This document shows, one piece after another, positions 1,137 to 60,341 of a stretch of 64,000 bases of DNA (positions are counted from its first letter, which is position 1; every line of letters begins with the position of its first letter). The notes beneath the pieces were generated by a model. The model saw nothing but the letters and a program-made list of their open reading frames with translations, was not told the DNA's origin and did no database searches. The DNA lies in NCBI GenBank assembly GCA_964016885.1, contig OZ024740.1, positions 166,284,001 through 166,348,000 of the forward strand, read 5' to 3'. Position numbers and translations under genes: made by a program. This stretch comes from Eledone cirrhosa. Its lineage: Eukaryota.

Positions 1137-1342
1137 AATCTATCTATCTATCTATCTATCTATCTATCTATCTATCTATCTATCTATCTATCTATCTATC
1201 TATCTATCTATGCCCTGGTGGCAAATAAATAGAAAGTTATCTACCTATCTATCTGTTTCTCTCTCTCTCTCTCTCTCTCTCTCTCTCTCTCTCTCTCTCT
1301 CTCTCTCTCTCTCTCTCTCTCTCTGTATATATATATATATAT
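1137..1342. repeat. Compound microsatellite (TATC)n-(CT)n-(TA)n
   Basis: Direct reading. Confidence 0.95.
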
Positions 1343-1538
1343 AGAAGAGCTTCTTCAGGACTAGAACTGTTTCATTCGTGAGAAATCATCAGGCAGATCT
1401 TATGAGCTTCCTGATGATTTCTCACGAATGAAACAGTTCTATTCCTGTAGAAGCTCTTCTATATTAACATTGTTATACTCTGCTATGTATTAAGTACCTT
1501 ACTTACTCTGGTTACCTCCGATTCAACCCAGAATAACT
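1341..1538 (+). mobile_element. Short PLE-type pLTR fragment, family A: inverted arm, HHR and tail, between (TA)n tracts
   Basis: 1341-1393 is the reverse complement of about 1410-1462; HHR at 1404-1456; TA repeats on both sides. Confidence 0.8.
1404..1456 (+). ncRNA. Type I hammerhead ribozyme (family A)
   Basis: gagcttc-CTGATGA-tTTCtcacGAAt-GAAA-CAGttctattcCTG-TA-gaagctc; 7-bp stem I, GUA cleavage triplet. Confidence 0.85.
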
Positions 1539-1550
1539 ATATATATATAT

Positions 1551-3816
1551 AAAGAAAAAGAGATGAAATCGAAAATGCAACTGGAGTCTTATTTTTTTAA
1601 AAAATATATATATTTATTTGGTTCCTTTACCGGTTTCGCAGGTCTTCTGCTTTTCAAAAGTAGAGTTGAGATGGAGGGTCTGTGGTTTTTCTCACATCTG
1701 GTTGGTCTCTGAATGTTACTTGTTTTATATGGAAAAAGTGGCTCGAAATGCCAGGTCTTTCCAGAAGTAATTTGATTGGTTGGTCAGTAATTATAATAAA
1801 TTTCGCGCCAGTTCGCGTTACAATAGTTCTTCAAATAAGAGGGGGGGCGGTTGTCACAGGTTGTTTTTTTCATATATGAGTGTTTGAATTTCTTTTTACT
1901 TGAAAAAAGGGGCTCACGAAGGCTTTTTTTTGGTTGGTTATAAATGAAATTATGGCTGTCACGTGAACAAGTTTTCATTAAATTTTCGCGCCCTTATTTG
2001 GAAATCCATTCTGTAGCCTTTTTAGAGAATTTTATGATAAGTAAAAGATAATGGTCAAGAGAAATGGGATGGAAGAATTGTTCTGGTTCAGTGAATATGG
2101 TTAGTTCGCTGGGGTGTCAGAATTCAAATTTTCTATTGAATAAAGAGAGTAAAGATATGTATGTTTATTTGTGTGCTTATGTGTGTGTGTGTGTGTGTGT
2201 GTGTGTGCGTGTGTGCGTGTGTGTGTGTGTGTATGTGTGTGTGTGTGTGTGTGTGTGTGTGTGTGTGTGTGTGTGTGTGTGTGTGTTTGAATTTATTTTT
2301 ACTTTAAAAAAAGGTGGCTCACGAAGGTTTTTTTTAATAAACGTGATTTGATTGGTTCTAAATGAAATTTGGCTGTCACGTGAACAAGTTTTCATTACAT
2401 TTCGCCCTTATTTGGAAATCTATTCTGTAGCCATTATAGAGAATGTTATGACAAGGAAAAGATAGTGGTCAAGAGAAATGGGATGGGAGAATTGTTCTGG
2501 TTCAGTGAATATGGTTAGTTCGCTGGGGTGTCAGAGTTCAGATTTTCTATTGAAGTAAAGATATGTATATTTATTTGTGTGCTTGTGTGTGTGTGTGTGT
2601 GTGTGTGTGTGTGTGTGTGTATGTGTGTATTGGAAGATGATTCTATTAGTAGAAATGGGGGAGGGAGTTGTGTGTGTGCATATGGGTGTTATGTGTGTGT
2701 GTGCGAGTATGTTAAGATGGAGAGAATATATATTTTGTGTGTATGTATATATGTGTGTAGGAAAGTGGTTCTATTAGTAGAAATGGGGGAGGGAGTTGTG
2801 GGTGTGGGGGTTGTTATGTGTGTGTATGGGTGTTATGTGCGTGGTAGTATGCTTAGCATGTTAAGATGAAGAGAATATATATATATATATATATTTTGTG
2901 TGTGATTGTAGATTTCCAAATAAGGGCGCGAAAATGTAATGAAAACTTGTTCAAGTGACAGCCAAATTTCATTTATAACCAATCAAATCACGTTTATTAA
3001 AAAAAAGCCTGCGTGAGCCACCTTTTTTTAAAGTAAAAATAAATTCAACACACACACACACACACACACACACACACACACACACACACACACACACACA
3101 CACACACACACACACACACACACACAAGCACACAAATAAACATACATATCATTACTTTCTTTATTCAATAGAAAATCTGAATTCTGACACCCCAGCGAAC
3201 TAACCATATTCACTGAACCAGAACAATTCTTCCATCCCATTTCTCTTGACCATTATCTTTTACTTATCATAAAATTCTCTAAAAAGGCTACAGAATGGAT
3301 TTCCAAATAAGGGCGCGAAAATTTAATGAAAACTTGTTCACCTGACAGCCATAATTTCATGTATAACCAACCAAAAAAAAAAGCCTTCGTGAGCCCCTTT
3401 TTTCAAGTAAAAAGAAATTCAAACACTCATATATGATAAAACAACATGTGACAACCCCCCTCTTATTTGAAGAACTATTGTAACGCGAACTGGCGCGAAA
3501 TTTATTATAATCATTGACCAACCAATCAAATTACTTCTGGTAAAACCTGGCATTTCGAGCCACTTTTTCCATATAAAACAAGTAACATTCAGAGACCAAC
3601 CAGATGTGAGAAAAACCACAGACCCTCCATCTCAACTCTTCTTTTGAAAAGCAGAAGAACTGCGAAACCGGTAAAGGAACCAAATCAATATATATATTTT
3701 AAAAAAAAATAAGACTCCAGTTGCATTTTCGATTTCATCTCTTTTTCTTTATACTTTCACTCGTGTAGGACACCTCGGTTATTTCTCAAATTGTAAAAAA
3801 AAAACTCACTTTCTAA
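1551..3816 (+). mobile_element. PLE 3' region, family B, with a long 5' inversion
   Basis: About 1551-2420 is the reverse complement of about 2910-3750; internal tandem units of about 415 bp; HHR at 3639-3678; tail then (TA)n; another fragment at 51586-51778 (-). Confidence 0.8.
3639..3678 (+). ncRNA. Minimal type I HHR with U3-A8 core variant (family B); antisense copy at 1625-1660
   Basis: ttctt-TTGAAAA-GCAGaagaaCTGC-GAAA-CCGG-TA-aagga; palindromic ACCGGT stem III. Confidence 0.75.
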
Positions 3817-3850
3817 TATATATATATATATATATATATATATATATATA

Positions 3851-57328: not shown

Positions 57329-58300
57329 TATATATATATATATTATATATATATAATATATATATATATATATATATATATATATATATATATATATATA
57401 TATATATATATATATATATATATATATATATATATATATATATATATATATATATATATATATATATATATATATATATATATATAATATATATATATAT
57501 ATATAATATATATATATATATATAATATATATATATATATATAATATATATATATATATATAATATATATATATATAATATATATATATATATATATATA
57601 TAATATATATATATATAATATATATATATATAATATATATATATATATTATATATATATAATATATATATATATATATATATAATATATATATATATAAT
57701 ATATATATATATAATATATATATATATAATATATATATATATATATATATATATATATATATATATATATATATATATATATATATATATATATATATAA
57801 TATATATATATATAATATATATATATATAATATATATATATATAATATATATATATATATAATATATATATATATATATATATAATATATATATATATAT
57901 AATATATATATATATATATATATATATATATATATATATAATATATATATATATAATATATATATATATAATATATATATATATATAATATATATATATA
58001 TATATATATAATATATATATATATAATATATATATATATATAATATATATATATATATATATATAATATATATATATATATAATATATATATATATATAT
58101 ATATAATATATATATATATATATATATATATATATATATATATATATATATATATATATATAATATATATATAATATATATATATATATATATATAATAT
58201 ATATATATATATATATAATATATATATAATATATATAATATATATATAATATATATATATATATATATATATATATATATAGAGAGAGAGAGAGAGAGAG
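57329..58300. repeat. (TA)n tract of about 950 bp with frequent AA phase slips, then (GA)n
   Basis: Direct reading; starts exactly at the family F 3' end. Confidence 0.97.
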
Positions 58301-59751
58301 CGAGAGAGAACTAATTTCCTGGAACTCTTACAATGGTTTAGAAATAGAATAGATTTAGAGTTAGTAGGCGTATGTATTTTTATTTGGTCCGCGTATCAGT
58401 AGAGAACTTCATACGACGAGGAAAATTATTGGCAGACAGATGTCATTAGAAGAGTTTTATAAAGGAAGAAAACAAACGGAGATATTATTATATCCATACT
58501 AAATATAGTTGTTTTACATGAATATAAACATCTATATATAGATCGTACCAAAATATTTGTTTAACTACTTCATATGCCTCATCTATCTATGAAAGCTATT
58601 AAAAAATCGAAGAAAATTGATTGCTTCACATTGTTACTATATATAAGTAACTCATTAACAAATATAGCAACGCAATATCTTGGTGGAGCATATACAATTA
58701 CACACAAAATCTTTTACGAGAACTATTAAGATTCATATTTGTTGAATTAGGAAATATATTATCGTATAACTTATATTATATAAATGATATATCTACAAAT
58801 CTAATGATATGGGTTTAATTATAGCAGAATTAGAAATTATGGTGAATTGGCAGAGACATGAGAGCATCAGAAAAATGATTATCAGTATTTGTCCCGACTC
58901 TTTATATTCTGAGGACATATAAATCCAAGAGTATCCGTTCGAGTTCGATAAAATTAAGGACAAATCAAACACTGGGGCCGATTTCCCTTTACCCACCAAA
59001 ATTGTTGGCCTTATGCCCAAATTAGTTGTGATAGTAGTGGATTCTGTTGTACAATCAGGTCAATATTGATTGAGGAAATATATGATCAACAACCGGGACC
59101 ATCAAAGATCATTAGAGATGACGGTGTCTATATCATTCAGGGCATAATTTCTTGTTTAACGTTGTAGGGTTAGATTTGAGGTAAATGGGGCTGGTTTTTT
59201 TCACTGGTTGATTTACTATGTACCTTTTCCTATATTGCCTCATGATACATTCATCTTTAAGGGAGATAGTGTATAGAATATTTTAAACTAAGATCTTCTA
59301 AAGTGATCTAGGTTATGATGCATTTATTTATTATCTCTCCAATTTTATCTGCAGATTTGTCAAATATTTTGTATATAGGGTCCTATTTCGAACATAAAGA
59401 ACCCAATGACTTGCATCCCCATGTATGGAGTACGTTCGTCTTATGTAGCACTTACGTATTTATGGATGTATATCCCTCCCCCTGTATATATATATATATA
59501 TATATATATATATACATTATGAAGAGAGAAGAAACATTTAGATATAATTAGTAATAAAATTAATCATACCTAAACTGTTCCTAAATTCCTCGACTACGTA
59601 GTTTCGTGGCATAAACAAAAACAATATATCAAAGATAAGAGGCTTAGCTCTGTTTCTCGACCGTTATATCGCGTGACTATCTCCCCCTCCGCCTTTTGGG
59701 ATTCTTTCTCACGTCGTGTAGACGCGTTCTTGAGACTAGTAAAATGAGGTA

Positions 59752-59839
59752 TCCTCTTGATAAGTCGGCAGACCTCGCAAGGACTCTATATCTTTGATAT
59801 ATTGTTTTTGTTTATGCCACGAAACTACGTAGTCGAGGA
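59752..59839 (+). ncRNA. Type I HHR, U3-A8 variant with long stem II (family H, copy 1)
   Basis: tcctc-TTGATAA-GTcGGCA...TGCCAC-GAAA-CTACGTAG-TC-gagga. Confidence 0.82.
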
Positions 59840-60341
59840 ATTTAGGAACAGTTTAGGTATGATACATTTTATTACTAATTATATCTAAATGTTTCTTCTC
59901 TCTTCATAATGTATTTTTAACTCTGATACTGGTTCAGTCTAGTTCAACCGGATTGGTCTGTCCCAGTCATTCATTGAGCAACATCGGTGAAGTTGGCACC
60001 CTTAACTCACAGTTGGGTGCGGATGCATTCATGTATATATGTGTGTGTCCGCATGTATCTGTGTGTTTCTAAATATATTAATAACTCCCTCTGGTCGAGC
60101 AATCTTTGAAGTGTGGGGACAACTGGAAAGCTTCCATTACTCATACTTCTCGCCTTCTTCACTACCTCTTCTACGGCCTCGATATGAATACCCCCTCCGC
60201 CTCCGTGGTATTTTCTTCGTGGTTATAAGAGGCTTAGCTCTGTTTCTCGACCGTTATATCGCGTGACTATCTCCCCCTCCGCCTTTTGGGATTCTTTCTC
60301 ACGTCGTGTAGACGCGTTCTTGAGACTAGTAAAATGAGGTA

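Follow-up and report, generated by a model that had tools for sequence, protein, structure and literature searches.

A 64,000-nt stretch of the Eledone cirrhosa genome (contig OZ024740.1, forward-strand positions 166,284,001 to 166,348,000; hereafter the window, with coordinates counted from its first base) carries several families of retroelements with features of Hydra-clade Penelope-like elements (PLEs), whose mirrored insertions pair a direct arm ending in a tail with a head-to-head inverted arm that lacks this tail. Copies of these elements end about 6 nt upstream of either of two copies of a short bulged hairpin, H1 and H2, and we consider it probable (roughly 0.7) that each hairpin positions the reverse transcriptase (RT) so that the nicked (TA)n target primes on a UA dinucleotide at this point. 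The underlying observation, i.e. fixed and non-random arm ends next to a hairpin, is confirmed. The window sits on the largest contig of a (TA)n-rich, 3.0-Gb genome.

An initial annotation of the window had proposed that the outer ends of inverted arms map onto the direct copy just 5' of the hairpin, at a distance of 5-12 nt. Masked self-comparison recovered every pair named there, with the arm end and the first hairpin base at 1464/1477 in family A (12 nt between), 3995/4001 in C (5 nt), 18647/18652 and 42273/42278 in E (4 nt each), 24835/24828 on the minus strand in K (6 nt), and 59914/59920 in H (5 nt). The spacing is indeed fixed, although typically at 4-6 nt, with copy A an outlier, and the C endpoint, first placed near 3990, was 5 nt short of its exact position. 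Two further window elements share this spacing, namely element B (3753/3759, 5 nt, with a variant hairpin) and a second copy of C (33672/33678, 5 nt), and other A-family copies end 5-9 nt before their hairpin. Because of TA microhomology, each junction is ambiguous by 1-6 nt.

The two E insertions of the window, previously described as independent and starting at the same point, do differ in both flanks and diagnostic alleles. We retrieved 30 E loci, one of which is the copy in the window itself. The inverted arm terminates at 42273 in 12 of them and at the end of the tail (42410) in one, and the other 16 have no inverted arm within 1.5 kb. Including the two window copies, 14 of 15 E inverted arms end at a single site, in a region (42071-42410) that holds 39 TA dinucleotides. 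In raw reads from three runs of the restriction-site-associated DNA type, all from one study, the six best-supported loose ends per run were inspected; those joining (TA)n fell exclusively at the equivalents of 42273 (340-436 reads) and 42410 (482-649 reads) for E, and of 59914 (171-215 reads) and 60078 (245-282 reads) for H. For family K, where the search was biased to direct arms, one of 28 other loci (window copy excluded) has a head-to-head, tail-less inverted arm.

The hairpin is formed by RCTC, a short stem, a variable loop, a 2-nt bulge (TT, TC or TA) and GAGY, usually followed by RCT, and is found in many unrelated families. It occurs twice between the hammerhead motif and the start codon, in the order hammerhead, TA, H1, tail, TA, H2, ATG. 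Tandem copies display this arrangement directly, with the tail continuing into H2 and then the ATG, in L004 (family E), L139 (C), L044 (K), L115, and at window position 60084 (H). Tailed ends lie 3-8 nt before H2 in E, C, K, H, M and other families, even though H2 itself is not copied in a terminal insertion, and the signal is therefore read before or during copying. This spacing rule also applies to the tailed 3' end with respect to the second hairpin, so that both priming events would take their register from the hairpin. The earlier suggestion of a priming register thus stands insofar as endpoints follow the hairpin at both ends of the element, whereas a template-positioning role for the RT is what we infer from this.

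The same organization extends to distant relatives. Of 54 marine metagenome relatives checked, which comprise nine pairs at least 80% identical in the RT region and otherwise distinct families, 38 have at least 170 nt of upstream sequence and an in-frame ATG, and 24 of these carry two motifs upstream of the ATG, 55-83 nt apart, with the second one 10-58 nt before the ATG. Published consensus sequences (PMC8557442), inspected by eye, include Hydra-1_Ajap, with both hairpins at its start and a 3' end just before H1, and Hydra-2_Amil and Hydra-2_Ajap, in which the end corresponds to H1 plus tail; Hydra-1_Amil and Hydra-1_Crog contain hairpin variants, and the hairpin was not recognised in Hydra-1_Obim.

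The stems covary, with compensatory changes, and hence represent a conserved RNA or single-stranded DNA structure. The first upper pair, a position not used for motif selection, is present in 92 of 107 motifs from metagenomes and 52 of 72 from the genome (with the partner slid by one base in 13-17), in sets that include alternative starts and chance matches (about 12 and 21 expected from shuffles). Across 18 equal-length copies, 98.4% of cells are paired and two-sided changes affect 4 of 7 pairs; the family M stem, GTTC/GAAC, is a two-sided change at an otherwise invariant pair, and the outer pair varies between GC, AT and TA. Variable loops led to a faulty MAFFT alignment of 89 hairpins, which does not contribute to these results. 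No window match to Rfam reached the gathering score, and the matches listed were microRNA models on palindromes and simple repeats. A selenocysteine insertion sequence (SECIS) was considered and dropped, as the motif lacks SECIS features. Separately, the 3' flank of the hairpin is conserved, with a GAG-NN-CT(C) near-dyad and AGCACT in 77 of 88 metagenome motifs, or AGTGCT, AGTACT or AGCACT in this genome, a conservation that is partly imposed by the search pattern; it might reflect protein contact or pairing between H1 and H2.

The window and 800 kb of additional random genome stretches were scanned for inverted arms adjoining (TA)n. Exact-key matching of (TA)n junctions, with no hairpin required, yielded 153 clusters, 46 of which were removed because their context was itself a TA run. 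In the remaining 107 clusters with continuing context, 36 have a hairpin within 150 nt, and for 31 of these 36 it lies within 12 nt; two of the five distant clusters sit at an H1 missed by the strict finder. At 29 hand-picked family sites (H1 and H2 combined), the ambiguity range of the junction overlaps 5-7 nt in 26 cases, with a peak at 6, against an expectation of 14% for any TA/AT run within 60 nt upstream. In most contexts, the ends pass over 8-14 such runs per 60 nt. A complementary count that uses no junction data places a TA at -6 in 38 of 79 unrelated metagenome hairpin contexts, compared to a background of 8.4% at -40 to -11. Endpoints do not, then, scatter over TA sites, in agreement with the initial annotation: they track the hairpin in many families, and the TA at -6 is conserved in distant relatives. 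Other TA-targeted fold-back families lack RCTC/GAGY and also have two fixed ends; these are found at L074, L097, L120, L136 and L137 (27-36 nt tails), at L087, L123, L125 and L137 (tails of about 55 nt), and at 25045-25070 in the window, and include a 311-nt tandem unit in which a hammerhead lies 3' of the tail.

The two arms of an insertion carry common subfamily alleles (L009, L014, L015, L018, L025 and the window insertion at 18221) and therefore derive from one source element. Either arm can be the longer, L007 and L010 being mirror images joined at an identical 3-nt microhomology. At its 5' side, the inverted arm extends beyond the direct arm by 25 nt in L010, about 60 nt in L098, about 230 nt in L116, about 330 nt in L119, and about 250 nt in L125, where the excess is probable, as judged from the reading frame. 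Among eight pairs inspected by hand, four have a longer inverted arm, two (L086 and L080) could not be resolved, and two (L106 and L118) were uninterpretable. Because a fold-back copy cannot hold sequence that is missing from its template, simple fold-back is excluded as a general route, and the longer inverted arms fit two complementary DNAs (cDNAs) joined head to head. The positions at which arms differ are concentrated 10-15 nt inside site 1, the point where tail-less arms end, in 11 of 14 pairs (14 differences in 224 nt, compared to 10 in 2560 nt), a pattern that fits slippage or error-prone early synthesis.

At the opposite side of the arms, there is a pile-up of inner (5') junctions among short E stumps, located where hammerhead stem I has its outer edge (42068-42071), with 8 of 30 loci at 42070-71 and loose ends there in three read runs as well. 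A similar pile-up is seen in family A (about 1401-1410) and at one metagenome locus (L185 upstream), and neither in H nor in another tandem family; a rule for all families was accordingly dropped, being true for E and A only. The pile-up could mark the transcript 5' end (a strong-stop product) or a structure-linked release.

In the mechanism we propose, each hairpin would be an RT binding site that places the UA about 6 nt upstream in the active site. The endonuclease would nick both strands of the (TA)n target; priming by one 3' end at site 2 would produce the direct arm with its tail, and the inverted, tail-less arm would stem from priming by the other 3' end at site 1. Both cDNAs would stop at variable 5' points and be joined head to head by microhomology, the tail being the interval between the two priming sites. 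With hairpins as start-setting signals, mirrored insertions with a one-sided tail would therefore be explained. This scheme builds on the observed anatomy, offsets and common source of the arms; that the protein binds the hairpins, primes there and, as a dimer, uses a single RNA is inferred largely by analogy with Poseidon PAc, a PLE of Anolis carolinensis. In a broader form, the twin hairpin would be a clade-wide ruler, with a dimer binding H1 and H2 on one RNA and priming both nicked (TA)n strands 6 nt upstream, and a cassette of about 150-250 nt (hammerhead, H1 and H2) would suffice for insertion in trans. We regard this broader form as tentative, at somewhat less than even odds; if true, it would jointly account for the tail, the inverted pseudo-long terminal repeat (pLTR) and the non-coding tandem units.

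Several points weigh against hairpin-set priming. By the strict finder, 71 of the 107 junction clusters have no hairpin, although these include motif-less other repeat families (27-56 nt tails) as well as missed variants such as that of H. Offsets are inexact, with 3 of the 29 sites missing 5-7 nt and window copy A at 12 nt, both the 5-7 nt window and the 29 sites were picked after seeing the data, and for three single junctions the distance to the hairpin is 25, 64 and 98 nt. The hairpins do not stand out by their own stability, with sense-strand RNA z-scores weaker than -2 for 6 of 7 tails, and the numbers of G-T versus A-C pairs (11 versus 9, and 23 versus 14) do not fix which strand is folded. 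The clustered arm differences (at -11) may instead reflect the query's allele or end-joining errors. Finally, hairpin-directed cutting at a conserved TA would give the same geometry.

Such directed cutting would either cleave the RNA about 6 nt before each hairpin, generating 3' ends that are then copied by standard target priming, or have the GIY-YIG domain recognise the hairpin within a DNA intermediate and trim the latter at the nearby TA. It accounts equally for the fixed offset, the conserved TA and H2, and is compatible with a folded strand left unfixed by the wobble counts. Moreover, Craig et al. (PMC8557442) suggested that the tail results from endonuclease resolution of an intermediate, the D. 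virilis endonuclease (as cited in a later paper) required the tail for plasmid cleavage, and the GIY-YIG nuclease SsnA binds a single-stranded DNA palindrome, with cleavage depending on nucleotides just upstream (PMC11893778). However, the single full-length PLE protein that has been assayed initiates at internal positions of longer RNAs, at genomic ends (PMC11167929), and the DNA-trimming version needs an extra, unexplained priming event beyond H2, such that we consider directed cutting unlikely.

The hairpins may also serve another purpose, i.e. ribonucleoprotein assembly or translation control of the nearby AUG, with ends being fixed by a linked UA-rich patch. H2 does end 10-58 nt before the ATG, and a binding site need not measure distance, but H1 has an equal offset far from the ATG, units without a long open reading frame (ORF; H and M) retain both hairpins, and neighbouring TA runs are skipped, all of which make this explanation very improbable. 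We give marginally less credit still to a single cDNA that folds back, copies itself, stalls at the hairpin and joins the flank, so that the fixed end would be a stop site. While the alleles common to both arms, the often near-perfect palindromes at junctions and the self-priming proposed for Adineta PLEs (PMC3846280) are in line with this route, the five inverted arms that outreach their direct arm are not, and the tailed end follows the same rule at H2, which the cDNA does not contain. Fold-back as a general route is thus largely refuted, although single symmetric stumps could be explained in this way. As for chance, i.e. ends on any TA, the AT-rich regions and junctions ambiguous by several bases would favor it; it is contradicted by the E locus, read, cluster, -6 TA and 29-site counts alike, and its probability is negligible.

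Assignment of these elements draws on motifs. The family E ORF, P0001 (36831-39101, plus strand), is the longest in the window and encodes an RT with a C-terminal GIY-YIG endonuclease and Hydra-clade motifs. It is 5'-truncated by a few codons (the missing N-terminus is present in L004), and an in-frame stop (39099-39101) interrupts it about 48 codons short of its natural end. Motifs include RWR at residue 31, DKT at 109, YRDD at 340, CNCRNKANC (CxCx5C) at 665 and VY...YIG at 699, with GxKF/Y not present. Among 32 aligned proteins, RW[RK] is found in 28 and DK[TS] in all 32, and all 32 are without CxxC before YIG, i.e. the CCHH motif is absent. Since comparison of P0001 to Pfam gave nothing significant, the RT and GIY-YIG call rests on motifs and homologues. 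The protein alignment had no match among solved structures. The single RT plus C-terminal GIY-YIG ORF, RWK-like motif, DKT, CxCx5C, lack of CCHH, hammerhead (in E and M) and (TA)n insertion are features of Hydra-clade PLEs, so that, going by motifs, membership appears likely. In family C, a related ORF follows in L139, whereas A, H, K and M are linked to the clade solely by the common hairpin and targets. Naiad elements were considered and dropped, the endonuclease here being C-terminal. A second, frameshifted RT-endonuclease ORF fragment is located at 27284-28476, with 27-64% identity to P0001 depending on the segment.

The E copy encoding P0001 is preceded by a 1.7-kb inverted arm (35089-36829, minus strand), the outer end of which joins (TA)n at site 1, and continues on the plus strand with a putative type I hammerhead, called by pattern match only (42068-42210; 10-bp stem I, CTGAAGA core, GAAAC), site 1 (42270-42273), H1 (42278-42358; ACTC-TGTA...TACA-TT-GAGT with a long apical part) and a 137-nt tail to site 2 (42274-42410), H2 lying 5-8 nt beyond and only in tandem copies (L004). 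Further E hammerhead-like copies are found near 18433-18584 and in both inverted arms. The short E insertion (18221-18784, plus strand) has an inverted arm at 18221-18433, a direct arm to 18647, H1 at 18652-18732 and a tail to about 18784. On the same strand, the family A stump (1339-1538) comprises a palindrome (1339-1464), the centre of which is the 5' edge of the hammerhead motif, H1 (1477-1495), in which GAGT is changed to AAGT while other A copies keep an intact hairpin, and a tail to about 1538. Element B (1548-3816, plus strand) has an inverted arm from 1548, a direct arm to 3753, a variant hairpin from 3759 (ACTC-GTGT...ACAC-CT-CGGT, with 3 of 4 lower pairs forming when paired by eye) and a tail to about 3816, and the family C stump (3848-4073, plus strand) has a palindrome (3848-3995), H1 (4001-4024) and then its tail, the second C copy (33596-33760) being degraded.

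Family K (24720-25025, minus strand) is a stump with an inverted arm from 25025, a direct arm to 24835, H1 at 24828-24804 and a tail to about 24720; its H2 (TCTC/GAGA) is visible in tandem copies L044 and L048, and no hammerhead was recognised in K. Family M (15484-16219, minus strand) forms a tandem unit of about 555 nt without a long ORF, with H1 at 16146-16123 and 15592-15569, H2 at 16028-16004, a hammerhead core at 15749-15687, and a terminal end 4-8 nt before the H2 position. Family H (59512-60668, plus strand) is a 590-nt tandem unit, again with no long ORF, comprising an inverted arm (59512-59641), site 1 (59914), H1 (59920-59979), site 2 (60073-60078), H2 (60084-60100) and a second unit (H1 at 60510-60569) that ends at site 2. 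Hammerhead-like motifs in H (about 59750-59840 and 60340-60430) and in family C (L139) have a TTGATAA core, which differs from CTGATGA in what we take to be a change on both sides of the 3-8 pair. Long palindromes at 48805-49130 and 16219-16930 do not have (TA)n on both sides and have no hairpin at their ends; the latter was considered as a counter-example and set aside, as it appears to be a separate element beside a 5'-truncated M copy. The window also includes a (TA)n array of about 950 nt (57329-58281) and, between 19406 and 55749, about 10 copies of an interspersed repeat of 130-190 nt, a SINE-like size, with 72-92% mutual identity (e.g. 31705-31886, 34741-34930 and 46977-47161).

Earlier work had already described the clade and the tail, as well as inverted pLTRs and internal initiation at two sites, and the tail-less inverted 5' pLTR that the initial annotation regarded as established for PLEs has been published for another PLE clade (PMC11167929). 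We found no description of a duplicated hairpin or of its fixed spacing in the openly accessible texts searched; as far as these go, the duplicated hairpin with fixed spacing is a new conserved cis element in a known retroelement clade. The question of how PLEs choose their start, and of how inverted repeats with a one-sided tail arise, was posed in PMC8557442, and PMC11167929 gave a partial answer for one element. With a motif of 20 nt that is present in duplicate, at a fixed 6-nt spacing, in elements ranging from this genome to coral and sea cucumber, start choice becomes open to simple mutagenesis. The motif also provides a means of recognising Hydra-type elements, together with the non-coding passengers that accompany them, and is relevant to how RTs related to telomerase set the register of their template.

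Mirrored insertions are reminiscent of L1 twin priming, in which internal priming by the second target strand leads to an inversion, with microhomology at the joint. In L1, however, the position of the second site varies and there is no overlap between the two parts, whereas here both sites are fixed and the arms cover the same sequence. Similarly, hepatitis B virus epsilon is a bulged stem-loop near a start codon that is bound by the RT to begin synthesis; its bulge templates protein priming, whereas here target DNA would prime with the template outside of the hairpin, and no homology is implied.

Closer to the present elements, the C-terminal, endonuclease-containing Hydra clade (Craig et al. 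2021, PMC8557442) is alike in its RWK-like motif, DKT, CxCx5C, lack of CCHH and hammerhead, as well as in (TA)n targets, inverted 5' copy and tail. Its accessible description reports no conserved hairpin besides the hammerhead, attributes the tail to endonuclease resolution, and gives tails of 30-40 nt compared to about 60-165 nt here. In Poseidon PAc (Frangieh et al. 2024, PMC11167929), two internal in vitro start sites coincide with genomic ends, and RNA 3' of them is needed. The interval between start sites is the tail, both strands of an AT-rich target are cut and extended, and a dimer is predicted; correspondingly, two fixed genomic ends separated by a tail are found here. PAc nevertheless belongs to another clade, and its starts lie inside an AC-rich stem-loop within the ORF and lack homology to the target, whereas the ends described here map to a conserved UA in the 5' UTR, located 5' of a duplicated hairpin and outside of it, and share TA microhomology with the target. 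The accessible text on PAc does not report a positioning motif common to several families. Finally, in the telomerase template boundary element and DRT10 SL5 (10.1101/2025.10.16.682844), the register of a related RT is likewise determined by a stem-loop in the RNA, and the RTs of PLEs are grouped with TERT. Those stem-loops are placed 5' of the template, where they determine the stop, whereas the hairpins described here, located 3' of the first copied base, would determine the start; if the twin-hairpin ruler holds true, they would be the start-setting counterpart of the telomerase boundary element.

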